NCBI GenBank assembly: GCA_963747235.1 | Contig: CAVVEU010000039.1 | Location: 11,879 to 75,878 of the forward strand | Origin: an uncultured Candidatus Rokubacteria bacterium | GTDB taxonomy: Bacteria > Methylomirabilota > Methylomirabilia > Rokubacteriales > CSP1-6 | Direction of reading: 5' to 3' | DNA: 64,000 nucleotides | Part shown: in pieces, positions 46,475 to 60,065 of the stretch | How the letters are laid out: each line of letters opens with the position of its first letter | How positions within the stretch are numbered: position 1 is the first letter of the stretch | Translations under genes and position numbers: made by a program | Notes under the pieces: model-generated | Told to the model about the DNA's origin: nothing | The model's database searches: none | Seen by the model: only the letters and a program-made list of their open reading frames with translations

Positions 46475-46490
46475 GTATGGCAATTCTAGC

Positions 46491-46506
46491 TGGCACCTCG
46501 GTTGCA
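46491..46506 (+). promoter_or_regulatory. sigma-54 promoter
   Basis: TGGCAC-CTCGG-TTGCA. Confidence 0.88.
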
Positions 46507-46530
46507 ATTCTGCCCCGCCAGGAGGCGCAC

Positions 46531-46971
46531 ATGTTCTATCGCATCGTGGTGGCGACGGACTTCTCGGATTGCGCGAAGGACGCGTTGGAACTGGCCAAGC
46601 GGCTCGCGGCGGCCCCGGGTAGCGAGTTGATCCTGACGCATGTGCTGACCGAGGTGCCCCTGTACGGGGAGGGGATCCTCAATATCGAGACCGCGCGCCA
46701 GGTCCGGGACGGCGCCCGCAAGTGGGCGGAGGCTGCTCTGGAGGAACTGGTGAGCAAGGCGCGCGGGGCGGGGCTCGGCGCCCGGGCGGCGATCCGCACG
46801 GGGGTTCCTCATCAGGAGATCGTGGCGCTGGCCGGGGACGAGCGGGCCGACCTCATCGTGATCGGCACCCATGGCCGCGGTGGGATCGCCCGCGCGCTCC
46901 TGGGCAGCGTGGCCGACCGCGTCGTGCGGCTCGCGCCGTGCCCCGTGCTCACGGTTCGCGAGCCGGCTTGA
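46531..46971 (+). CDS. universal stress protein
   Basis: IVVATDFS...IGTHGRGG...GSVADRVVRLAPCPV. Confidence 0.92.
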   Translation: MFYRIVVATDFSDCAKDALELAKRLAAAPGSELILTHVLTEVPLYGEGILNIETARQVRDGARKWAEAALEELVSKARGAGLGARAAIRTGVPHQEIVALAGDERADLIVIGTHGRGGIARALLGSVADRVVRLAPCPVLTVREPA

Positions 46972-46981
46972 GTCGCCGGCG

Positions 46982-47404
46982 ATGCGGACCGAGGTGAAAG
47001 GGGCGGGCGGATCGGTCGGCGACTGGATGAGCAAGGCGCCGATGGCGGTCCGCGAGGACACACCGATCCGGGACGCGGTGTCGCTCATGCAGGGCGCCGA
47101 GGTGCGCCACCTCCTAGTCCGGGACGGCCCGGTGCTGACGGGCATCCTCTCCAGCCGGGACCTGGGGCGTCTCGTCACGCGCGATCTGGGTTCGCCTCTT
47201 CTGGCCGGTCCGGTCGGGTCCATCATGAGCGAGGGCCCGGTGAGCGTGGCGCCCGAGACGCCGCTGGTCACCGCGGCGCGGCTGCTGCTCGAGCAGCGGA
47301 TCGGCGCCCTGCCGGTCCGTGACGGCGAGCGGATCGTCGGGATCTTCACGGTGCCCGACGCGCTCGAGGCGCTCCTCGCGATCGCCGAGGCCTCGGGCGC
47401 GTGA
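46982..47404 (+). CDS. CBS domain-pair protein
   Basis: VRHLLV...GILSSRD...IGALPV. Confidence 0.85.
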   Translation: MRTEVKGAGGSVGDWMSKAPMAVREDTPIRDAVSLMQGAEVRHLLVRDGPVLTGILSSRDLGRLVTRDLGSPLLAGPVGSIMSEGPVSVAPETPLVTAARLLLEQRIGALPVRDGERIVGIFTVPDALEALLAIAEASGA

Positions 47405-49495
47405 GCGGCCGCTCGCTCGCTCCGTTCCTCGATCCCGCCAGCGTGGCGGTGATCGGCGCGTCCCGCGATCCGTTCAAGGTGGGCGGCAGCGTCGTGGCCA
47501 ACCTGCGCTCGGCGGGCTTTCGCGGGCGGATCATCCCGATCAACGCCCGCGCGGACTCGGTGCAGGGCCTGCCCGCGCTGCGCTCGCTCCTCGACGTCGA
47601 GGGCCCGGTGGACCTCGCGGTGATCGCGGTGCCCGCCGCGGACGTCTTGCCCGCGCTCAAGCAGTGCGCGGCCAAGCAGGTCGGGGGCGCGGTGGTGATC
47701 TCGGCCGGCTTCCGGGAGACCGGCGGCGACGGCGTGCGGCGCGAGGCCGAGCTGCGCGAGTGGCTGCGCGACCAGCCGATCCGGGTGCTCGGCCCCAATT
47801 GCCTCGGCTGGATCCGGCCGACCCGCCGGCTCAACGTCACGTTCGCGCCCGGGATGCCCGAGCCGGGCGGCATCGCCTTCATCACCCACTCGGGCGCGCT
47901 GGCGGTGGCGATCCTGGACTGGTCGCGCGACCGCCGGGTCGGCTTCTCGCTCTTCGCCTCGCTCGGCAACCAGGCCGACCTGAACGAGAGCGATCTCCTC
48001 GATGCGGTGGCCGCCGATCCGGAGACCCGGGTGATCGCCTGCTACCTCGAAGGCGTCGCCGACGGCCGGCGCTTCCTCGGCGCCCTTCGCCGCGCGGCCG
48101 CCGTGAAGCCGGTCGTGCTCCTGAAGGCGGGCCGCTCCGCGGAGGGGGCGCGCGCCGTGTCGTCCCATACCGGCGCGCTCGCGGGCTCCGATCGGGCGTT
48201 CGACGCGGCCGTCCGGCAGGCGGGCGCGCTCCGGGTGGACACGGTGGAGGGGCTGTTCGACATCGCGCGCGGCCTGGCCAGCCAGCCGCTGCCGCGCGGC
48301 CGTCGCCTGGTCGTGGTGACCAACGGCGGCGGGCTCGGCATCGTGGCCACCGACGCGGCGCGGGCCGCCGGCCTCACCGTCGCGCCGCTCGACGAGGCCG
48401 TCCGCGCGCGCCTGGCCGAGGGCCTGCCCGCCACCGCGGGGCTCGGCAACCCGGTGGACCTGGTGGGGGACGCCGACGCGCGCCGTTACGGCCACGCGCT
48501 GCACACCCTCGGGAGCGACAGCGCCGACGCGATGCTGGTGCTCCTCACGCCGCAGGCCGCGACCGACGCCGCGAGCATCGCCCGCACGATCGCGGGCGCG
48601 ACGCGCGGCTGGCCCATCCCGGTCGCGGCCGCCTTCGTGGGCGGGACGCGCGTGGCGCCGGGGGTGCGGGTGCTCGAGGAAGCCGGCATCCCGTGCTATG
48701 CCTTCCCCGAGTCGGCGGTCGAGACGCTGGCCGGAATGGCGCGGCTGGCGTCGCGACGGGCCGGCCTGGCCGTGCCCCCCACGCGCACGGTCGACCCGGC
48801 CCGCGCGCGCGTCTGGCTGGCGGGGCTCGGCCCCGTGGCGGGGCGGCAGCTCGGCATGCCGGAGCTGGCTCCGCTGCTCGACGCCTACGGCATCCCGCGG
48901 CTCGCCGCGCGCGTGGCGGCGGGCGCCGCCGACGCCGCGGCCGTCGCGGAGGAGATCGGGTTCCCGGTCGCGCTCAAGATCGTGTCGCCGGACATCACGC
49001 ACAAGACGGAGGTGGGCGGCGTGGCCCTGGGGCTCCGGGACGCTCGCGCCGTGCGCGAAGCCGCCGAGGCCATGCTCCGACGGGTCGCGATCGAGCGGCC
49101 GGCGGCGGCGATCCGGGGGCTCCTGGTCGAGACCATGGCCGCCGCCGGGAAGGAGCTCCTGCTGGGCGGCGTGCGCGACGATCAGTTCGGGCCCCTCGTG
49201 ATGGTCGGGTTCGGCGGGATCTACGTCGAGGTCTTCTCGGATACCACGGCGCGCCTCGCTCCGGTATCCTCGGTCCGAGGCCCTGGCGATGCTCGACGAG
49301 CTCAAGATGGCGCCGCTGCTTCGCGGCACGCGGGGCGAGCCGCCGGTGGATCGTGACGCGCTGGCCGCGGTCGTCGGCCGCTTCTCGCAGCTCCTGGTGG
49401 ATCTCCCCGAGCTGGCGGAGATCGAGATCAACCCCTTGACGGTCGGGCCCTCCGGCGCGGTGGCGGTGGACGCGCGGGCCCGGCTCAGCCGATAG
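47401..49495 (+). CDS. acetate--CoA ligase (ADP-forming) family, fused alpha+beta, no GNAT domain; frameshift near 49275
   Basis: VAVIGAS, LGPNCLG, SHTGAL catalytic His, HKTEVGGV, EIEINPL. Confidence 0.88.
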
Positions 49496-49504
49496 GAGGC
49501 ACGG

Positions 49505-49639
49505 ATGGGCATCCGGAAGAGCATGGGCAAGAACAAGAAGTCGAAGAAGCGGACGGAGGCGGTGGCGGTCAAGCGGGACGAGATCCAGCGCAAGGCGGCG
49601 ATGGACCGCAGCAAGCGCCGCCCGCAGGGGATGAGGTAG
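49505..49639 (+). CDS. 44-aa highly basic protein (not in the ORF track)
   Basis: AGGAGG RBS; MGIRKSMGKNKKSKKRTEAVAVKRDEIQRKAAMDRSKRRPQGMR; fills the intergenic gap. Confidence 0.65.
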   Translation: MGIRKSMGKNKKSKKRTEAVAVKRDEIQRKAAMDRSKRRPQGMR

Positions 49640-49646
49640 CCGCGCG

Positions 49647-50115
49647 GTGGCCGCTCGAGACGGGCTTTCGCCGCGTCGTGCTGGGGATGGACGGGTCCGC
49701 GCACTCCCGGCGGGCGGTGGCCTTCCTGACCCGGATGAAGCCGCCCCGCGGCGGGCGCGTGACGGTCGTCCGCGTCGTCGAGCCGGTGCGGGTGCCGTCG
49801 ATGCCGCTCGTCCCGTCCGGCATGCGGGCGCAGATCGCGGGGCAGGCGGAGGCGGCGAACCGGAGTCTGGCCGCGGGGGCCCGCCGGCAGGTCGAGGCCG
49901 CCGCGGCCACGCTCGCCCGGGCGGGCTGGCGGACGCGCGCGGTCGTGCGCAGCGGCGTGCCGCTGGCCGAGCTGCTCGCGGCGGTGCGCGCGGAGCGGGC
50001 CGACGTGCTCGTGCTGGGCGCGCGGGGCGCCGGCGCGGTGACCCATTTCCTGCTCGGGAGCGTGGCGGAGGCCGCGCTGAAGCAGGCGCCGGTCGAGGTC
50101 CTGATCGTCAAGTGA
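49647..50115 (+). CDS. universal stress protein (start uncertain or frameshifted)
   Basis: VLGMDGS...VLGARG...LLGSVAE. Confidence 0.82.
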
Positions 50116-50140
50116 CGGGCAATCCACGAGGAGATCGAGC

Positions 50141-50710
50141 ATGAGACTGAACGAGATCCTGTTCCCGACCGACTTCTCGCCCGCGTCGGAGGCGGCGGGA
50201 CGCATCGCGCGGGAGATGGCGGTGCAGGCCGGCGCGCGCCTCCACGTGCTCCACGTGGTGCCCCCGGTCACCGATCCGTCGCTGCCCGCCGAGCACCTGG
50301 CGCGGGCCGGCCGCGCGCTGGCCGACGGGCTCCGCGTGGAGACCGCGCTGCTCAGCGGGTGGGCCGGCCGGAACATCGTGGACTACGCGCGCGAGAAGCG
50401 CATCGATCTCATCGTGGTGGGCACCCACGGCCGGACCGGGATCAGCCACGCGATCCTCGGCAGCGTGGCCGAGACGGTGGTGCGCCTGGCGCCCTGCCTC
50501 GTGCTGACCGTGCCCGCCTCGCTCCTCGCGGAGCGGAGCGCGGTCCCCGTCGCGCCGATCGTCGCCGCGGTGTCCCCGCGTCCGTGCCTGGTGTGCGGCA
50601 AGGCGAGCGACGAGCTGATCTGCGAGGGCTGCCGGACCCGCATCCGGGGCGAGGCGCTCGAGCAGAAGCGCGACGCCGAGCGGCCCGGCCACCGGGGGCT
50701 GCCGGTATGA
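50141..50710 (+). CDS. universal stress protein with a C-terminal CxxC-CxxC zinc ribbon
   Basis: USP core, then CLVC...CEGC. Confidence 0.85.
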   Translation: MRLNEILFPTDFSPASEAAGRIAREMAVQAGARLHVLHVVPPVTDPSLPAEHLARAGRALADGLRVETALLSGWAGRNIVDYAREKRIDLIVVGTHGRTGISHAILGSVAETVVRLAPCLVLTVPASLLAERSAVPVAPIVAAVSPRPCLVCGKASDELICEGCRTRIRGEALEQKRDAERPGHRGLPV

Positions 50711-50856: not shown

Positions 50857-51345
50857 ATGAAGCAGGGCGCGACCGTGTATCTCTACGAGCTGGCCTGGAT
50901 CCTGCCGAGCATCGCCATCCCGGTCGGCATGCTCGCGGCGCTGCTGGTCACCGCCTTCGGCGCCGGCATCCACGTGCCGAGCGTCGCGGGCCGCATCGAT
51001 CCGACCCGGGTCACCGAGACCGCGCCGTTCGACCAGCCCGGCGTCGTGCAGACCGGGCCGGTGAGCTACGAGGTGCGGATGATCGGGCAGATCTGGGCCT
51101 TCACCCCGAACGAGATCCGCGTGCCGGTGGGCTCGACCGTGACCTTCGTGGCCACCAGCAAGGACGTCATCCACGGCCTCTTCATCCCGGGCGCCAACGT
51201 GAACGTCATGCTGATCCCCGGGCAGATCTCGCGCGTCACCGCGCGGTTCGATCGGGCGGGGGAGTTCTTCATGGCCTGTCACGAGTACTGCGGCATCGCG
51301 CACCACACCATGGGCGGCAAGGTCATCGTGGAGCCCCGGTCATGA
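50857..51345 (+). CDS. cbaB: ba3-type (B-family) cytochrome c oxidase subunit II
   Basis: single TM; CuA ligands DVIHG and CHEYCGIAHHTM. Confidence 0.88.
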   Translation: MKQGATVYLYELAWILPSIAIPVGMLAALLVTAFGAGIHVPSVAGRIDPTRVTETAPFDQPGVVQTGPVSYEVRMIGQIWAFTPNEIRVPVGSTVTFVATSKDVIHGLFIPGANVNVMLIPGQISRVTARFDRAGEFFMACHEYCGIAHHTMGGKVIVEPRS

Positions 51346-52985
51346 GCCAGGACACCGCGAGCGATCCGGAGAAGCGGCTCACCGGCGCGCACATGCTGGT
51401 GGCCAACGTGGCCCTGCTCGGCGGCATCGTGACCGGGCTGCTGCAGGGGCTGGAGCACGCCGGCTTCGAGTTCCCGGCGAGCGAGTACTTCCTGCAGTCC
51501 GTACTACCACAGCGTGAGCATGCACGGCGTCCTCAACGTGCTGGTGTGGACCACCTTCTTCATCGCGGGCTTCCTGCCCTTCATCAGCGCGCGCGCCTAC
51601 GGCATCCCGCTGGCCAGCCCGCGGCTCGGGTGGCTCACCTTCTGGCTGATGCTGGCCGGCCTGCTCATCGCGGCGGTCCCGCTGGCCGGCAACGCGGCGA
51701 CGGTCATGTTCACCTTCTACGCCCCGCTCCAGGCGCACTGGGCCTTCTACGTGGGCCTCACCCTGGTGGTGGTGGGCACGTGGCTCATCACGCTGCGCCT
51801 GGCGCTGAGCCAGCGGGCGTGGCGCGCCGGGCATCCCGACGCGCGCACGCCGCTGGCCGCGTTCATGTCGCTGGTGACGATGGCGATGTGGACGCTCGCC
51901 TCGATCGGGCTGGCCGCCTCGATGCTCTTCATGCTGATCCCGTGGTCGCTCGGGCTCGTGGCGGGGACCGACCCGCTGCTCACGCGCACGCTCTTCTGGC
52001 TCACCGGCCATCCCATCGTCTACTTCTGGCTGCTCCCCGCGTACGTCTCCTGGTACACGCTGGTGCCGCGGCAGGCGGGCGGCCGGCTCTTCAGCGATCC
52101 GATGGCGCGGGGCTCCTTCCTGCTCTTCCTGATCCTCTCCGCGCCGCTCGGTCTTCACCATCAGGTGACCGACCCCGGCATCCACGAGGGCTGGAAGCTC
52201 TTCCAGGCGTTCCTCACCTTCGCGGTGTTCTTCCCGAGCCTGCTCACGTTCTTCAACGTGGTCGCCTCGCTCGAGGGCGCCGGGCGGGCGCGCGGCGGGA
52301 AGGGGCTGGCCGCGTGGTTCTTCCGGCTGCCGTGGGGCGACCCGTCGCTGGCCGCCCAGCTCCTCGCGATGCTGATGTTCTGCGCGGGCGGCATCGGCGG
52401 GCTGATCAACGCCTCGTACAACATGAACCTGGTCGTGCACAACACCACCTACGTGGTGGGGCACTTCCACACCACGGTGGGCACCGCGGTCACGCTCACC
52501 TACATGGGGATCAGCTACTGGCTGGTTCCGCACCTGGCGGGCCGGGCGCTCTGGAGCGCCCGCATGGCGCTGGCCCAGGCCTGGATGTGGTTCGTCGGGA
52601 TGCTGATCTTCTCCACCGCGCTGCACGAGCTGGGGCTCCGGGGCATGCCGCGGCGGACCATGATCAGCCAGGCCTCGTACTTCCAGCCGGAATGGAGCGC
52701 GCTGCTGCCCTGGGTCGGGGTGGGCGGCACGCTGCTCTTCGTCAGCGGCATCCTCTATCTGCTTGAACCTGTTCCTGACCGTGACGGTCTCCCGCGCGCC
52801 CGCGCCGGCGGTGCCGGAGTTCGCGCGCGTCCTCGTCGCCGCCCGAGGACGGACCGGCCATTCTCAACCGCCTGCGCCCGTGGGTGATCACGGCGGTGGT
52901 CTTCCTCGTCGTCGCCTACGGGCCGACCCTGGCGCGGCTGGTCGCCACGAGCCGGCTCAACGCGCCGGGCTTCCGGGTGTGGTAG
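51342..52985 (+). CDS. cbaA: ba3-type (B-family) cytochrome c oxidase subunit I (frameshifts)
   Basis: HGVLN, FWLTGHPIVYFWLLPAY, GLHHQ, VHNT, GHFH, GMPRR. Confidence 0.9.
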
Positions 52986-53008
52986 AGCCAACGGAAAGGA
53001 GCACGCTC

Positions 53009-53460
53009 ATGAAAGTCGGCGAGCTGATGACGGGCACCAACCTGATCACCGCGCGTCCGGGCACTCCGGTGCTGGAGGCGCGCCAGACGATGCTCAAGGC
53101 GAAGATCCGCCACCTGCTGGTCACCGAGGCCGACGGCCTGCTGGTCGGCATCGTGACCGACCGCGACATCCGGCTGAACCTGCCGTCCCAGGCCACGAGC
53201 CTCTCGGTGTGGGAGATCAACCACCTCCTGACCAAGCTCACGGTGGGCGAGGTCATGACCCGCGCGGTCATCACGATCGGGCCGGACCGCGAGGCGCGGG
53301 ACGCGGCGGTGCTGATGCTGGATCACGCGATCGGCGCGCTGCCCGTGACGGACGGCGGCCGGCTGATCGGCATCGTCACCGAGGCCGACATCCTGCGCGG
53401 ATTCGTGTGGCTCACGGGTGGCCCGGCGGCGGCCAAGCCGCGTCCCGAGGGAGAGCCTGA
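53009..53460 (+). CDS. CBS domain-pair protein (AcuB-like); end uncertain, reads in frame into nrfH
   Basis: IRHLLV...GIVTDRDIR..LPS.ATSLS.WEI; AAGGAG RBS. Confidence 0.8.
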
Positions 53461-53470
53461 TCCGCGCGCG

Positions 53471-53923
53471 ATGAAGCCGCTCGGGGTGGCGCTCGTGCTC
53501 ACGTGCCTCCTCGGGATCCCCGCCGGGATCGGCGCGTTCACGTTCGTCTACGCCAAGGGCTACTCGTACCTCTCGACCGACCCGCGCACGTGCCTCAACT
53601 GCCACATCATGAATCCGCAGTACGAGGCCTGGCTCAAGAGCGGCCATCGCCACACCGCGGTCTGCGTGGACTGCCACCTGCCGCACGGCGGCCTGGCGAA
53701 GTGGGTGGCCAAGGCCGACCAGGGGTTCCGCCACTCGGTGGCCTTCACGCTGCAGAACTTCAAGGAGCCGATCGAGATCAAGCCGCGGGACCGGCGGATC
53801 GTGCAGGTCAACTGCGTGCGCTGCCACGCCGACTTCGTCCACGCGGTGGCGGGCACGTCGGGGCGCCAGGAGCTCGACTGCCTGCACTGCCACGCGGGCG
53901 CCGGCCACGGGGCCGGCGGCTGA
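53471..53923 (+). CDS. nrfH: tetraheme cytochrome c nitrite reductase small subunit
   Basis: N-terminal TM, SYLSTDP..CLNCHIM, CVDCH, CVRCH, CLHCH. Confidence 0.9.
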   Translation: MKPLGVALVLTCLLGIPAGIGAFTFVYAKGYSYLSTDPRTCLNCHIMNPQYEAWLKSGHRHTAVCVDCHLPHGGLAKWVAKADQGFRHSVAFTLQNFKEPIEIKPRDRRIVQVNCVRCHADFVHAVAGTSGRQELDCLHCHAGAGHGAGG

Positions 53924-53947: not shown

Positions 53948-55346
53948 ATGCCCATGAAGCGTTCGAGCGGCAGCGCGCGCGCCTGGCTCCTCGTCGTCCT
54001 CGGCTTCGGCGGGATCGCGGGGCTGACCGTGCTGCTGCTGGCGCTCCTCACGAACATCTTCGAGCGCCGGCAGGAGGCCCGCCAGCCCTTCGTGCGCGTG
54101 GTCGAGGTGACCGAGGAGACGATGGACCCGAAGCCGTGGGGCCAGAACTGGCCGCACGAGTACGACAGCTATCTCAAGACCGCGCTGCCCACCGCGACCA
54201 AGTACGGCGGCCGCGGGCCCGGAGCGAGCGACGCGGGCCCCGCCGATCAGAAGCTCGATCGCGACCCGTGGCTCAAGCGGATCTTCGCGGGCTACGCCTT
54301 CGCGCTCGACTACCGCGACCGCCGCGGGCACGCCTTCGCCCTCTTCGACCAGGAGCAGACCCGGCGGGTCACCGAGCGGAAGCAGCCGGGCGCGTGCCTG
54401 CACTGTCACGCCTCGAATCTCGCGCTCTACCGGTACGCCGGGAAGGGCGACGTCACGAAGGGCTTCGAGGTGGTCTCCGGGATGCCGTACGCGGACGCGC
54501 GCGACATGAAGGACGACGCGGGCCGGCCCCTGATCCAGCATCCGGTCTCGTGCGTGGACTGCCACGAGCCGAAGACGATGGGCGTGCGGGTGACGCGGCC
54601 GGGCTTCATCGCGGGCATCAAGGCGCTCAAGGCCAGGCAGGGCATCGCCGACTACGACCCGAACCGGGACGCCTCGCGGCAGGAGATGCGCTCGTTCGTG
54701 TGCGGGCAGTGCCACGTGGAGTACTACTTCAAGGGCCCCGGCAAGGTCGTGACCTATCCCTGGGCCAACGGGCTCCGCGTCGAGGAGATCGAGGCCTACT
54801 ACGACGCGGAGGGCTTCTCGGACTGGGTGCACGCCGAGACCGGCAACAAGGTGCTGAAGGCGCAGCATCCGGAGTTCGAGGTGTGGAGCCAGGGCGTGCA
54901 CGCCCGCGCGGGCGTCGCCTGCGCGGACTGCCACATGCCCTACCAGCGCGTCGGGGCGCTGAAGGTGAGCGACCACTGGGTGCGCAGCCCGCTGCTGAAC
55001 GTCAACCGCGCCTGCCAGACCTGCCACGCGGTCCCCGAGGCGGAGCTGCACGGCCGGGTCCTCGGCATCCAGGATCGCCACCACGCGCTGCTTCAGCGCG
55101 CCGCGAAGGCGACGACCGACATGCTGGACGCGATCGTGGCCGCGAAGAAGGCCGGCGTGCCCGAGGCGCGAGCTCCAGGCGGCCGCGGCGCTCCACCGCA
55201 AGGCGCAGTGGCGGCTCGACTTCGTCGCCGCGGAGAACTCGATGGGCTTCCACGCGCCGCAGGAGCTGGCGCGGATCCTCGGCGAGGCCATCGACTACGC
55301 GCGCCAGGGCCAGCTCGAGGCCGCCCAGGCCGCGCGGAAGCGCTGA
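53948..55346 (+). CDS. nrfA: pentaheme ammonia-forming nitrite reductase, CXXCH type (frameshift near 55168)
   Basis: five CXXCH motifs, FAGYAF..DY...[31 protein letters not shown]. Confidence 0.9.
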
Positions 55347-55386
55347 GCCGCCCCGGCGACGTGGGATCTCACGCGAACGGAGGAGG

Positions 55387-55905
55387 ATGAAGACCATGAG
55401 CGCGCGCAAGGGGGAAGACTCAATGAATGTCGACAGGTCACGACTCAGATTCATGGTGGAGGGCGTGGCGTTCGCGGTCACCCTCGCGATTGGCCGCCGC
55501 GTCGGCGCGCAGGCCGGGCCAAGCGGGAAGATCACGGTCTACAAGGAGCCGACCTGAGGGTGCTGCAACCAGTGGGTGGTCCACCTACAGCGATCGGGAT
55601 TCACCGTGGTGGTGGAGAACCGGGCCGACCTCCGGCCGATCAAGACCCAGTATCGCGTGCCGGCCGATCTCGAGTCCTGTCATACGGCAGTGATCGAAGG
55701 GTACGCGATCGAGGGCCACGTCCCCGCTGATGTGATCAGCCGGCTTCTCCGCGAGCGCCCGAAGGTCCTCGGCCTGGCCGTGCCGGGGATGCCGGCCGGC
55801 TCCCCAGGCATGGAGGTGCCGGGCTCACCGGCCGAGCCTTACCGCGTCTTCATGTTCGATAGAGGCCGCACGGTGGGCGTCTTCGCGACCCGCTCGGGTG
55901 GTTGA
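55387..55905 (+). CDS. DUF411/CopG family protein with an in-frame UGA (probable selenocysteine, UGCC motif)
   Basis: VYKEPT-TGA(55555-55557)-GCC continues in frame to SCHTA, IEGHVP, LAVPGMP.GSPGME; start could be 55387, 55396 or 55423. Confidence 0.8.
55562..55591 (+). other. putative bacterial SECIS hairpin
   Basis: GCUG/CAGC lower stem, GUGG/CCAC upper stem, G-led loop GUGGU starting 19 nt after the UGA. Confidence 0.55.
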
Positions 55906-56042
55906 TCGAGAGACGTGAAGAAACGCGAAGCGGGACACGGCAAGTAGTATATTTGCGCCATTGTTCCCTGTCGGGACCGTGGACTAACATTGGCATCTGA
56001 CGGCCACTGTCCCAATTCCAATGGGAAACGAAAGGGTCGCCA

Positions 56043-57236
56043 ATGATGCGAAGTGTGAGGTGGATCGTCCTCACTGTCGCAGTACTCGTCGCACCGCTTG
56101 GCGCGGTCTCGGCCCAGCCTGTGATGAGCCCGAGCCAGGACCCGCTCGCGGGGTCGCAGGTGTTCGGCTCAAAGGGTTGCGTCAAGTGCCATTCGGTGAA
56201 CGGGGTCGGCGGCAAGGTGGGGCCCGATCTCGCCCGCACGATGAGGCCGCGCTCGTTCGTCGATCTGGCGACCGCGATGTGGAATCACCTTCCGCGCATG
56301 GCGGACCGGATGAAGCAGCTCGGCATTGCCCGGCCGCAGCTCGACTCCAAGCAGGCCGGCGACCTGGTCGGCTTCCTCTATACCTTGAACTACTTCGACG
56401 CCCCTGGTAATGCCGACGCCGGGAAGCGCGTCTTCTCCGAGAAGCACTGCATCACATGCCATACGGTGCGCGGCACGGGCGGTGTGGTGGGGCCGAACCT
56501 GGATCACCTCCGGCAATTCGGCTCACCGATCTTCGTGGCGTCGGCGATGTGGAACCACGGGCCCCAGATGGCGGAGAAGATGAAGGAGCGAGGGGTAGAC
56601 CGTCCTACCTTCACGGCGAAGGAGCTGCGCGATCTCAGCGCATATCTGGCCCCGGCCACCGGAGGGCCCGAGGGGGGGCCGCTCTACGTGCTGCCGGGGA
56701 GGCCCGAGTCCGGGCGGCAGCTCTTCGCGGAGAAGCGCTGCATCGAGTGCCACGCGGTGGGGGGGGCGGGTGGCCGCGTGGGACCGGATCTGGTCGAGCG
56801 CGGTCTACGGGAGAGCCCGATGGAGTTCGCGGCGACGATCTGGAACAAGGCGCCCGCCATGGCCGCGGTCATGCAATCCAAGGGAATCAGCGTCCCCCAG
56901 CTGGCCCCCGAGGAGATGGCCGACATCGTCGCGTACCTGTATTCGGTCCGCTACTTCGCGAGCGGCAGCGTGCAGCAGGGATACAGCGTGGCGAGCCAGA
57001 AGGGCTGCTTGCACTGCCACGTGCTTCGCGGCGAGCGCGGCAAGCCCGCCAGTGACTTGGCGAAGGTGAAAGGGCTGGACTCACCGGCCGCGGCGCTGGC
57101 CGCCCTGTGGAACCACGCGCTGGTGACGCCCACCGTTGCTGGGCAGAAGCGGGACTGGCCGATCCTCACATCTCGAGAGATGGCCGACCTCATCGCGATG
57201 CTCCAGTCCGTCAGCCAGGCGCAAAAAGCCCGATGA
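56043..57236 (+). CDS. periplasmic c-type cytochrome with four class-I-like heme domains
   Basis: signal peptide; CVKCH, CITCH, CIECH, CLHCH, each followed by a WNH/WNK repeat (most with P-x-M). Confidence 0.88.
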   Translation: MMRSVRWIVLTVAVLVAPLGAVSAQPVMSPSQDPLAGSQVFGSKGCVKCHSVNGVGGKVGPDLARTMRPRSFVDLATAMWNHLPRMADRMKQLGIARPQLDSKQAGDLVGFLYTLNYFDAPGNADAGKRVFSEKHCITCHTVRGTGGVVGPNLDHLRQFGSPIFVASAMWNHGPQMAEKMKERGVDRPTFTAKELRDLSAYLAPATGGPEGGPLYVLPGRPESGRQLFAEKRCIECHAVGGAGGRVGPDLVERGLRESPMEFAATIWNKAPAMAAVMQSKGISVPQLAPEEMADIVAYLYSVRYFASGSVQQGYSVASQKGCLHCHVLRGERGKPASDLAKVKGLDSPAAALAALWNHALVTPTVAGQKRDWPILTSREMADLIAMLQSVSQAQKAR

Positions 57237-57243
57237 TCGGGAA

Positions 57244-58510
57244 ATGACCTGGCTCGGTCTCGCGGGAGCGCTGCTCCTCGCGGCCGTGCTGGGGCTTTTT
57301 CCGGCGGGGGCCCAGGCCGCGGACGCATGCGCCGCCTGTCACCTCGAGACCGGGGACGAGCGGTTGGCCGCCCCGGCCAGGAATTTCGACGGGGACATCC
57401 ACAAGGCGAAAGGCTTCGGCTGCGTCGACTGCCACGGGGGTGACAGCCGGGAGACCGGCATGGAGGCGATGGATCCCCGCAAGGGCTTCATCGGCAAGAT
57501 CTCGCGCCCCCAGATGACCCAGGTCTGCGGCCGGTGTCACTCCGACGCCGGCTTCATGAAACGCTACAACCCCTCGCTGCGCGTGGACCAGGTGGCGGAA
57601 TATGCGACTTCGGTCCACGGCCGGCGTCTCAGAGAGCTGGGCGATCCGAACGTGGCGACCTGCGCGAGCTGCCACCCGCCTCATGCCATTCGACCGCGGT
57701 CCGATCCGAAGTCGAGCGTTCATCCGGCCCGCGTCGCCGATACCTGCGCCCGCTGCCACGCCGACGCGAAGTACATGGCGAGCTACAAGATCCCGACCGA
57801 TCAGCTGGAGAAGTACAAGACCAGCGTCCACTGGGCCGCGATGACGGCCAAGGGCGACCTCTCCGCGCCCACGTGCAACAGCTGCCACGGCAATCACGGC
57901 GCCGTGCCACCCGGGGTGAACTGGGTGGGCAACGTGTGCGGGCAATGCCACAGCGTGCAGGCCGACCTGTTCAAGTCGAGTGTCCACGCCAAGGCGTTCG
58001 TCGAGATGGGGACACCGGGCTGCGCCACGTGCCATGAGAACCACGCGATCCGCGCGCCCGGCGACTTCATGCTGGGGCTCGGAGACAAGGCGGTCTGCGG
58101 TAGCTGTCACGGTCCCGATGACAAGGGGGGCAAGAGCGCCGTCGACATGCAGACCCGGATCAGTTCGCTCCGGACCGAGGTGGAGAAGGCCGATGCCCTC
58201 CTGCTGCGGGCCGAGCGGGCGGGCATGGAGGTCAGCCAGGCCCAGTTCGATCTGAACGGAGCCCGGAACGACCTGATCAAGGCGCGCGCGGCCGTCCACG
58301 CCTTCAAGGTCGACGCGGTGAAGCAGGCGGTCGAGCCCGGGCTTGCGGTGACCGCCAAGGCCCATCTCCGCGGGCTGCGTGCGCTGGAAGAGCTCGGGTT
58401 CCGGCGCAAAGGGCTCGCGGTGTCCCTCGTCGTGATCTTCGCCCTGATCGCGGGCCTGGTGGTGAAGATCCGGCAGCTCGGGGATCGGCCGGCAGGGAGG
58501 CTTCCCATGA
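57244..58510 (+). CDS. nonaheme cytochrome c with C-terminal membrane anchor (reads in frame into the Rieske gene; stop inferred)
   Basis: nine CXXCH motifs, repeated SVH, C-terminal TM. Confidence 0.82.
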
Positions 58511-58962
58511 CTGAGCACGCGCTGGAGCCCGACGAGAACCGCCGGGGATTCATCAACTGGTTCCTCGGGACCAGTGCGGTGGCGTTCGTCCTCTCCGTCT
58601 TCTATCCGGTGGCCAGCTACCTGGTGCCGCCCACGGTCGGGGAGTCCACCGCGGGCACCGTGACGCTGCCCATCAAGCCCGACGACGTGAAGCCCAATAC
58701 GGGACAGATCTTCAAGTTCGGGAGCCGTCCCGGGATCCTGATCCGGACCTCGGCGGGTGATCTGCGGGCATTCTCCGCCGTCTGCACCCATCTCAACTGC
58801 ACCGTACAGTACCGGTCGGATCTCAGCGAGATCTGGTGCGCCTGTCACAACGGCCACTACGACCTGAACGGCAAGAATGTCGCGGGCCCGCCGCCCCGGC
58901 CGCTCGACACGTTCGTGGTCAACGTCCGGGGGGCCCAGATCGTGGTCAGCAAGAGCGCGTGA
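58507..58962 (+). CDS. Rieske iron-sulfur subunit of a bc-type complex
   Basis: Tat motif NRRGFI, CTHLNC, CACH, GPPPRPL; GGGAGG RBS. Confidence 0.9.
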
Positions 58963-58964
58963 CG

Positions 58965-60065
58965 ATGGAGGCCGGCGAGCCGCGACACGGCAGGCTCTGG
59001 ATGTGGCTCGACCAGCGGGTCGGGCTCAAGGACCTGGAGAAGCTCGCCCGGAAGAAGGAGATCCCGGTCCATCGGCACAGCATCTGGTACTACCTGGGCG
59101 GCATGACCCTCTTCCTCTTCATCATCCAGGCGTTGACCGGCATCCTGCTGCTGCTCTACTATCGCCCGAGCGCGGAGGAGGCCTTCGAGTCGATCCAGTT
59201 CCTGATGGCCGAGGTCCAGTTCGGCTGGCTCATCCGCTCGATCCACTCCTGGGCCGCCAACCTCATGATCCTCACCCTCTTCGTGCATCTCTTCAGCGTG
59301 CTGCTGCTCAAGGCGTACCGGCCGCCGCGGGAGATCACGTGGTTCTCCGGCATGGCGCTGCTGGGCCTCGGCCCTCGGCTTCGGGTTCACGGGCTACCTG
59401 CTGCCCTGGAACGAGCTCGCGTACTTCGCGACCAAGGTGGGCACCGAGATCACGAGCGCCGTTCCTGGGATCGGAGGGTTCGCGGGCCGGCTGCTCCGCG
59501 GCGGTGACGAGGTGACCGGGGCGACGCTGACGCGCTTCTACGGGATCCACGTCGCGATCCTGCCCGCGACCGCGTTCGCCCTCCTGGGGCTGCACCTGTA
59601 CCTGGTGCAGCGACACGGGATGAGTGTCCCGCCCGGCGTCGAGCGGAAGGGCGGGGCGGCGCGCGTGATGCCGTTCGTCCCGAACTTCCTGCTGCGCGAC
59701 ATCGTGGGCTGGCTCATCGGTGCTCGCGATCCTGGCCGTCGCTCGCCGCGTACTTCCCGGCGGAGCTCGGCAGGAAAGCGGATCCGTTCCTGCCCGCCCC
59801 GGCCGGGATCAAGCCCGAGTGGTACTTCATGTTCATGTTCCAGACGCTGAAGTACCTGCCGAGCCACATCCTCGGAATCGAGGGGGAGATCGTGGGCATT
59901 CTGGGCTTCGGGCTGGGCGGCCTCTTCCTCCTGCTCATCCCCGTGCTCGACCGCCGGACCGCGCGGGGCCAGCCGAGCCGTCTGTTCACCTGGATCGGCA
60001 TCGCGATCATCCTGTTCATGGTGCTGTTCACCGTCCTCGGCTACATGGCGAGCGCGACCAAGTGA
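58965..60065 (+). CDS. cytochrome b of a bc-type complex (frameshifts near 59370, 59720 and 59745)
   Basis: RSIHSW, LFVHL, GYLLPW, FYGIH...LHL, KPEWYF. Confidence 0.88.

Follow-up and report, generated by a model that had tools for sequence, protein, structure and literature searches.

A probable selenocysteine-containing CopG (DUF411) protein encoded across an in-frame UGA codon in an uncultured Rokubacteria bacterium

CopG of Pseudomonas aeruginosa (6WIS/6WJE) is the only relative with a solved structure of the protein considered here, a DUF411-family product whose gene lies on the forward strand of a 64,000-nucleotide stretch of DNA (the window) from an uncultured Candidatus Rokubacteria bacterium (assembly GCA_963747235.1, contig CAVVEU010000039.1, positions 11,879 to 75,878) and whose reading frame is crossed by a TGA codon. 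According to the passages of PMC7558416 that deal with its chemistry, CopG binds a tetranuclear copper cluster through a CxCC motif and two methionines adjacent to that motif, aids resistance to copper in anaerobiosis, and has been proposed to interconvert Cu(I) and Cu(II), to oxidize Cu(I) or to hand copper over to cuproproteins or a multicopper oxidase. The window protein is homologous to CopG, and to CutG of Rhodobacter capsulatus, over the whole mature domain, with the same fold and a C-terminal extension in common; it shares with CopG the position of the motif, the C-H-T and E-G-H-V-P stretches and the two methionine motifs. CopG is exported, as the window protein may be. The abstract of Hausrath et al. 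2020 reportedly agrees with the Cu4 cluster and the copper role of CopG. The window protein differs from CopG in that the first cysteine of its CxCC motif is encoded by UGA, in that a hairpin resembling a selenocysteine insertion sequence (SECIS) overlaps the codons of helix alpha-1, and in that its gene stands beside nrfHA and cytochrome genes, not beside cop, cus or multicopper oxidase genes. We propose that the locus is an intact gene for a selenocysteine (Sec)-containing form of CopG, the internal UGA of which is very probably read as Sec.

The locus can also be compared with known selenoproteins. Thioredoxin-fold selenoproteins with a UxxC motif (Sec-thioredoxin, glutaredoxin, DsbA-like and thiol:disulfide interchange proteins, as listed in Table 1 of PMC13188914) likewise have Sec in place of the N-terminal cysteine of CxxC, at the start of helix alpha-1, and the coexistence of Sec and Cys forms within a family and a SECIS, in the window gene a candidate one, inside the coding sequence just past the UGA are common to them and to the window gene. 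The window motif differs by its extra cysteine (UxCC), and its Cys homologue holds a copper cluster and does not undergo disulfide cycling. A similarly cysteine-overloaded motif is found in SaoT (CD2368 family, NF040730), which the relevant part of bioRxiv 10.1101/2022.07.06.499078 presents as a thioredoxin-like protein with UXXC, CXUC and CXCC forms that is thought to touch heavy metal; it is, however, of a different family, as the window protein has no NCBIfam match, and of a different system (SAO, from anaerobes). Sec at or near a metal site is likewise described in PMC13188914 for three predicted copper-related selenoproteins, namely a CopZ-family 2Fe-2S-binding protein, the SO_0444 Cu/Zn efflux transporter and an E1-E2 cation ATPase with UxxC, and for FdhA and [NiFeSe] hydrogenase, where Sec ligates the metal. 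These proteins have other folds and are of other families, none of them DUF411. To our knowledge, none of them puts Sec in a multinuclear copper cluster, and the natural Sec-metal bonds that we know of are to Mo/W and Ni, not to Cu.

Translation from 55387 to 55905 gives a single frame with an internal TGA at 55555-55557 and a terminal one at 55903-55905. Table 11 splits it into two in-frame open reading frames (ORFs), 54136..55557 and 55576..55905, which an earlier note made from the letters alone had joined across the internal TGA; the sequence reads as it said. The peptide around the codon is KITVYKEPT-U-GCCNQWVVHL, followed by SCHTA, EGHVP and PGMPAGSPGME. Residues 95-142 match Pfam DUF411 (PF04214) with 95.3 bits against a cut-off of 27 (E 1.8e-27), and in the alignment with CopG 6wis_A (E 1.6e-29) the TGA falls on the first cysteine of NCGCC, exactly where the earlier note had placed it; the motif position and the following x-C-C are retained, and the codon of the first cysteine is UGA. 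The AlphaFold2 model of the mature domain (pLDDT 93.3, pTM 0.88) was matched by Foldseek to CopG 6WIS/6WJE with a TM of 0.88-0.90 and an rmsd of 1.5-1.7 Å at 44% identity, the next matches being NrdH and glutaredoxin-type thioredoxin folds at only E about 1e-2. By profile and by predicted structure, membership in the family and in the fold holds. The model puts U past strand beta-1, on the residue that immediately precedes helix alpha-1; because this is the N-terminal Cys position of the thioredoxin fold, U-G-C-C can be seen both as a UxCC metal motif and as a UxxC redox motif.

The TGA itself is real. Of the words sampled from 55100-56300, half or more occur in each of 14 soil and permafrost metagenome runs, and four of these runs, from four studies, were compared (X1, X2 and X4 from DNA, and X15, an RNA library) by means of contigs derived from short reads, not raw reads; the source sample may be among the best-matching runs. 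Where a single run left parts of the region uncovered, this was given no weight. The codon is spanned by contigs in 4/4 runs with no alternative letter at 55555-55557, while the same contigs list variants at many neighbouring sites. Record 4 of X1 (55465-55654) and record 12 of X2 (55343-55640) show 0 differences from the window, record 18 of X4 (55410-55915) shows 7, all outside the TGA, and records 8 and 9 of X15 bridge the codon. The frame breaks that this assembly has in COX1, nrfA and selD might encourage the view that the TGA is a sequencing or assembly miscall of a true TGC or TGT. The errors seen elsewhere are nevertheless indels and not substitutions, as the earlier note had remarked for the window and as is the case for selD elsewhere in the genome, and the contigs of all four studies read TGA, as do, at the same codon, a paralogue of 55% identity, a second contig of the same genome and 24 other related genomes. 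We give a miscall next to no chance, and given the comparative data an explanation by error is untenable.

These comparative data come from the window's own genome (labelled G000) and from a sample of 61 related genomes of its genus, family and order. G000 holds three copies: the window gene, a paralogue on contig C8 and a near-duplicate on contig C42. The C8 paralogue (C8:425204-425665; locus L021:1501-1962), 55% identical, has TGA at the same codon (PTITVHKSPT-U-GCCAAWVGHL); it carries a twin-arginine-like signal, ARRGLLIG, and an HpcH/HpaI aldolase-type gene follows it, so its context is unlike that of the window copy. The C42 copy reads KITVYKEPT-U-GCCNEWVGHL, with the same TGA and with a frame break further on inside the DUF411 gene. 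The contig portion that bears it (C42:1-2084; loci L022/L023) nearly duplicates positions 55300-57300 of the window, with the end of nrfA, the Sec-form gene and a tetra-cytochrome c gene (96% protein identity), and probably comes from a variant strain or from a haplotype left unmerged.

A DUF411 homologue is present in 33/61 related genomes, and in the 38 gene copies read from them the codon at the motif is TGA in 27 and TGC or TGT in 11; at least one Sec form occurs in 25 of the 33 homologue-bearing genomes, and Cys only in the other 8. One of the 25, G029, contributes a Sec form in a stretch identical to the public locus L053. Genomes of named species yielded 80 loci, 11 with UxCC, 68 with CxCC and 1 without the motif, and since one of the two search patterns demanded a Cys codon, the Sec share of 11/80 is an underestimate and not a frequency. 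The nearest of these loci belong to metagenome-assembled genomes (MAGs) of Candidatus Rokuibacteriota/Methylomirabilota, and the Sec forms among the 80 include Caldilineaceae, Caldilineales and Ardenticatenaceae (Chloroflexota), Candidatus Binatia and Vicinamibacterales (Acidobacteriota). Many homologues, in sum, have TGA at this codon with coding conserved on both sides, and others have Cys, which is the pattern that the earlier note had proposed to look for in related genomes. Two further variants were seen: a motif U-R-C-C in place of U-G-C-C in L029 and L057 (G049 and a Candidatus Rokuibacteriota MAG), and a Cys-form copy (L138, G055:C5) that is degraded, its middle part being scrambled.

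Sixteen aligned sequences of both forms share invariant V, K, P and T before the codon and G, C, C, W and H after it, as well as C-H-T, E-G-H-V-P, P-G-M-P and P-G-M-E. The invariant residues that flank the codon, including TVYKxPT before it and G-C-C after it, sit upstream of any possible restart codon, which makes it very unlikely that the TGA is a true stop and that the locus is a pseudogene, or encodes a short peptide plus a truncated DUF411 protein started from an internal GTG or ATG. Such a reading can appeal to an in-frame GTG at 55576 and to the public gene calls, which give 97-107 aa for all close orthologues; the truncated product, however, would have neither strand beta-1 nor any of the metal motif, and would lack the export signal, and the TGA state is maintained, without further lesions, in four phyla or more.

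The length of the public calls was seen in the 120 best matches within a collection of 5.8 billion proteins. Thirty-four of these are 97-107 aa long, 77-99% identical, and cover only the part after the TGA, and the remaining 86 are full-length and all at most 64% identical. Because all close orthologues are post-TGA fragments, public annotation truncates the Sec forms; the names attached to the matched proteins are 'hypothetical protein' or 'DUF411 domain-containing protein'. DUF411, PF04214, CopG and UxCC are all absent from the complete Table 1 of an inventory of 119 selenoprotein families/subfamilies that its authors describe as the most comprehensive (Zhang et al., AEM, May 2026; PMC13188914). 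No DUF411/CopG selenoprotein occurs in the matching passages of a 2022 review (PMC9312934), and full-text searches of the literature gave no link of DUF411/CopG to selenocysteine, although supplements of selenoproteome surveys, which lay outside that search, could list the family. A scan against NCBIfam release 20.0, selenoprotein models such as NF040730 included, returned 0 families at E up to 0.01. As far as we searched, the Sec variant of CopG is uncatalogued in print.

The machinery that decodes UGA as Sec is present in the window's genome, where all four of the genes whose presence the earlier note had made a test of its proposal were found. The genes for tRNA-Sec (selC; 69.3 bits, gathering score 47), selB (365.2 bits, cut-off 242) and selA (578.1 bits, cut-off 268) lie side by side on contig C14, and selD scores 227.8 bits against a cut-off of 125 in a gene split by a frame break. 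The genome also encodes an FdhA (C8:590703-593795; L139; 1122 bits) with the canonical in-frame TGA, ...ARV-U-HS..., followed by a 6-bp hairpin. Among the relatives, selA is above its cut-off in 54/61 genomes and in 21/25 of those with a Sec form, and it is found in 5/5 distant Sec-form genomes; as selA is nearly universal in the order, its presence is uninformative with respect to the Sec form. With the TGA in the contigs and at the same codon in homologues, these sel genes support what the earlier note had concluded, that the locus encodes a Sec-containing, exported DUF411/CopG copper protein.

Low-level read-through of UGA occurs in bacteria, and the codon could in principle be read as Cys or Trp by near-cognate tRNAs or under a non-standard code. 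TGA is, however, the terminal stop of nearly all these genes, and so it is the normal stop in these organisms and the code is standard. Read-through without Sec must further contend with the full set of Sec genes and a canonical FdhA selenoprotein in the same genome, with the fact that the TGA is in every case at a position of Cys, the hallmark of Sec, and with a hairpin at SECIS distance that is enriched in the TGA forms. Taken together, these observations leave it a very slim chance.

For the hairpin, the earlier note had described a pairing of GCUG (55562-65) with CAGC (55588-91) and of GUGG (55572-75) with CCAC (55581-84) around a GUGGU loop. That pairing exists, but RNAfold gives a better register, which is also the conserved one: GUGGGUG (55572-78) pairs with CACCUAC (55582-88) in a 7-bp stem of -7.5 kcal/mol around the loop GUC (55579-81), and with a further C-G pair beyond an A.A mismatch the structure spans 55570-55590 (-6.6 kcal/mol). 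The stem-loop begins 15 nt and its GUC loop 21 nt after the UGA. The rules for bacterial SECIS elements (bSECIS) in the legend to Fig. 2 of PMC13188914 are an apical loop of 3-9 nt, a stem of 4-16 bp, G in the first two loop positions, a distance of 16-37 nt from the UGA and a minimum free energy (MFE) of at most -7.5 kcal/mol, and the window hairpin in the GUC-loop register falls within all of these limits.

Sec and Cys forms were then compared, with identical 117-nt stretches counted once (30 Sec, 74 Cys) and a strict search that allowed only a perfect stem with no bulges under all four bSECIS rules. A rule-obeying hairpin was found in 24/30 Sec forms and in 5/74 Cys forms. Nine homologous pairs are formed in 87% (87.4%) of the cells in Sec forms against 57% in Cys forms, and controls slid out of register gave 27-61% for the Sec forms; within the window's order only, the figures are 92% (22 Sec sequences) and 71% (8 Cys sequences). 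GC content differs somewhat between the two sets. In the subset with an identical W-V-x-H-L peptide (26 Sec, 26 Cys), the third base of the Leu codon is G or A, and so pairs with the U of UGG, in 26/26 Sec and 13/26 Cys forms, the first loop base is G in 26/26 and 16/26, and the outermost flanking pair (columns 16-36) is complementary in 92% and 23%, respectively; the Leu codon is CUA in four of the 26 Sec forms, that of the window among them. The three Chloroflexota Sec forms L063, L073 and L078 are without the W-V-x-H-L hairpin, their peptides being WIEHL, WIEHV and WSAHL, and have UGA-GGC-UGC-UGU-GGC in common. Sec forms that fail the strict search may use another SECIS shape, in some of them with a lower stem from the UGA-GGC/G-F codons, as folded by RNAfold.

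Several results weigh against the reading of the UGA as Sec. The energy of the window hairpin is exactly at the published limit, and the 80 nt from 55546 to 55625 have a z-score of +0.43, with 133/200 shuffles folding at least as well in RNAfold. Because shuffled sequence folds equally well, the hairpin alone is not evidence, and the match to SECIS geometry that the earlier note had claimed, though present in the GUC-loop register, is by itself no better than chance. Changes on both sides occur in only 2/9 pairs, and the covariation score of the 30 Sec forms is 0.101 against 0.104 and 0.112 in slid controls, a weakness due to the W-V-x-H-L codons (UGG GUG ... CAC CUN), which dictate most of the stem. 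Only 2 phylogenetically independent Sec/Cys contrasts lie on supported branches, so the hairpin association admits of no valid significance test, and 6/30 Sec forms, all three from Chloroflexota among them, fail the strict search. Beyond the hairpin, selA and selB fall below their cut-offs in the Sec-form genomes G005, G017, G018 and G029 (MAGs that are 78-95% complete), a gap that fits the loss of one contig with the selAB-selC cluster; the X15 RNA library may contain DNA and therefore bears on the TGA only, not on transcription; and the neighbourhood in the window is one of haem and nitrite respiration, not of copper resistance, and is unconserved. We consequently give the hairpin comparative weight only, and on that footing a SECIS role is plausible.

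A maximum-likelihood tree was calculated for 104 distinct proteins with the motif site masked; it is unrooted and poorly resolved. Parsimony gives 7 Sec/Cys changes on this tree, of which at least 2 are forced by well-supported branches. Within a clade of 34 Rokubacteria-type and Binatia sequences (26 Sec, 8 Cys) the Cys forms are nested inside. One of them, L042 (G011), lies among Sec forms and retains the complete 9-bp hairpin, which suggests a recent change from Sec to Cys, and a six-member Cys clade adjoining the window's gene has lost the hairpin pairing. The nesting of the Cys forms, the hairpin kept by L042 and the pairing lost in the neighbouring clade suggest, as far as an unrooted tree of this resolution allows, that Sec has reverted to Cys.

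The features of the gene are collected in Table 1. The true start is more likely ATG 55423 or ATG 55396 than ATG 55387. ATG 55423 is favoured because relatives begin there, because GGGGGA stands upstream, and because a permafrost-metagenome contig (X4) has AG in place of the 55 bases 55355-55409, which deletes both upstream ATGs; ATG 55396, behind GGAGGAGG, is a possible start as well. Judged by eye, the N-terminus from 55423, MNVDRSRLRF-MVEGVAFAVTLAIG-RRVGAQA followed by G, resembles an export signal. Many Sec-form relatives, the C8 paralogue included, have a twin-arginine-like RRxxLL motif at the N-terminus, and three Chloroflexota Sec forms have a lipobox-like Cys there.

Table 1. Features of the candidate Sec-form CopG gene, in window positions.
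Feature	Position	Strand	Description and basis
Putative Sec-containing CopG/DUF411 coding sequence	55423..55905	+	160 codons plus stop TGA; from Pfam, structure and start of relatives
Alternative in-frame starts	ATG 55396; ATG 55387	+	
Shine-Dalgarno-like GGGGGA	55410..55415	+	7 nt before ATG 55423; direct reading, presumed role
Predicted export signal MNVDRSRLRFMVEGVAFAVTLAIGRRVGAQA	55423..55515	+	Charged n-region, hydrophobic core, AQA then G; by eye
UGA, U of U-G-C-C	55555..55557	+	First CxCC position; N-terminal position of thioredoxin-fold UxxC
Candidate SECIS upper stem-loop GUGGGUG / GUC / CACCUAC	55572..55588	+	Folding and comparative pairing

The gene directly follows nrfH and nrfA. 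Upstream lie COX1 (51514-52887, with a frame break), about 2.5 kb away, an ORF (52763-53923) that carries a CBS-domain region together with an NrfH-type cytochrome, and NrfA, which runs from 53948 to about 55346 and is frame-broken close to its end; downstream are a tetra-cytochrome c (56043-57236), a multihaem-Rieske fusion (57136-58962), a cytochrome b and further cytochromes. Membership in an operon for a ba3 oxidase, at the end of which the earlier note had put the gene, was rejected on this arrangement, in which it follows nrfHA and precedes genes for c-type cytochrome, Rieske protein and cytochrome b. In tblastn against all loci examined, the window's NrfA, tetra-cytochrome c and COX1 matched only G000's own two copies; since the context is found only there, linkage to a ba3 or an nrf operon was dropped as a functional argument.

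Several of these neighbours are of note in themselves. The ORF at 52763-53923 joins two CBS domains to an NrfH/NapC-type tetrahaem region and may be two genes or a fusion. The fusion at 57136-58962 combines a multihaem cytochrome c with a Rieske 2Fe-2S domain bearing a PetC-type anchor, and together with the cytochrome b that follows (58836-59507) it makes an unusual bc-type complex beside the nitrite reductase. Frame breaks split COX1 (51342-52887), the C-terminal end of nrfA (53948-55390) and cytochrome b (58836-59515) into overlapping ORFs and, elsewhere in the genome, also selD (C27:46033-46945); they could be either indel-type assembly errors or real lesions. On the reverse strand, a 1296-aa ORF at 46486-50376 has no Pfam match and, with long ORFs on the opposite strand (47319-49439), may be a high-GC shadow ORF.

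Across the loci compared, DUF411 genes are adjoined by multicopper oxidase genes in 10 and by RND transporters (AcrB/CusA-type) in 7, a proximity that is the classical association of CopG in the passages of PMC7558416 on its gene context. Among Sec-form loci, L025/L053 and L057 stand beside a multicopper oxidase and L025/L053 and L055 beside an RND gene. Copper-resistance neighbours are thus a frequent association of DUF411 and not a defining one. Neighbours were clustered from stop-to-stop ORFs, which in high-GC DNA gave two giant spurious clusters, and several of the recurrent neighbour clusters had no Pfam match.

The neighbours in the window bear on what the protein does once Sec is inserted. 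With NrfH, NrfA, the tetra-cytochrome c, the multihaem-Rieske fusion and cytochrome b around it, it might be a general periplasmic thiol/selenol oxidoreductase for the maturation of cytochromes or nitrite reductase, and a thioredoxin-fold UxxC is the usual layout of a redox selenoprotein among those covered in PMC13188914. We consider this unlikely: the neighbourhood is unconserved in any relative examined and other Sec-form loci adjoin multicopper oxidase or RND genes, while the C-H-T, E-G-H-V-P, P-G-M-P and P-G-M-E stretches found DUF411-wide are all retained, two methionines adjacent to the motif being cluster ligands according to the description of the CopG site in PMC7558416.

For a Sec-containing CopG, decoding would proceed as follows. 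The stem-loop formed by the W-V-V-H-L codons would recruit SelB with Sec-tRNA(Sec), so that the UGA at 55555-55557 would be read as Sec and not as a stop, and the terminal TGA, which has no such element, would terminate translation. The full-length precursor would be exported and give a small thioredoxin-fold product with a redox-active, copper-binding U-G-C-C motif, for which homology predicts the periplasmic job of CopG, that is, interconversion of Cu(I) and Cu(II) or delivery of copper. We infer that Sec is inserted, that the window protein is exported and binds copper, and that selenium has a role in it. Compared with Cys, Sec has a lower pKa and a softer character, which would favour Cu(I) binding and easier re-reduction. 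A selenolate in place of the first thiolate may bind copper, or it may make the attack in a UxxC selenenylsulfide couple. More tentatively, and with a little less than an even chance in our estimation, the selenolate of U57 would be a direct and probably bridging ligand of the tetranuclear copper, making this the first natural Cu-Sec metalloprotein, with selenium tuning the Cu(I)/Cu(II) chemistry or shielding the cluster from irreversible oxidation in the periplasm; included in this proposal is that the form was gained or exchanged several times among soil bacteria (Rokubacteria/Methylomirabilota, Binatia, Chloroflexota and Acidobacteriota), with reversion to Cys in some lineages.

If the proposal of a Sec-containing CopG is correct, DUF411/CopG would join the list of prokaryotic selenoprotein families, and selenium at the metal-binding motif of a copper-cluster protein would pose a new chemical question. 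Since both forms occur in close relatives, and sometimes in one genome, the contributions of Sec and Cys can be compared directly. The finding would also allow annotation to be corrected for the close orthologues, which are now called as fragments without signal peptide and metal motif. Uncultured bacteria of soil and permafrost commonly have the Sec form, which would therefore bear on the interplay of selenium and copper availability in soils.

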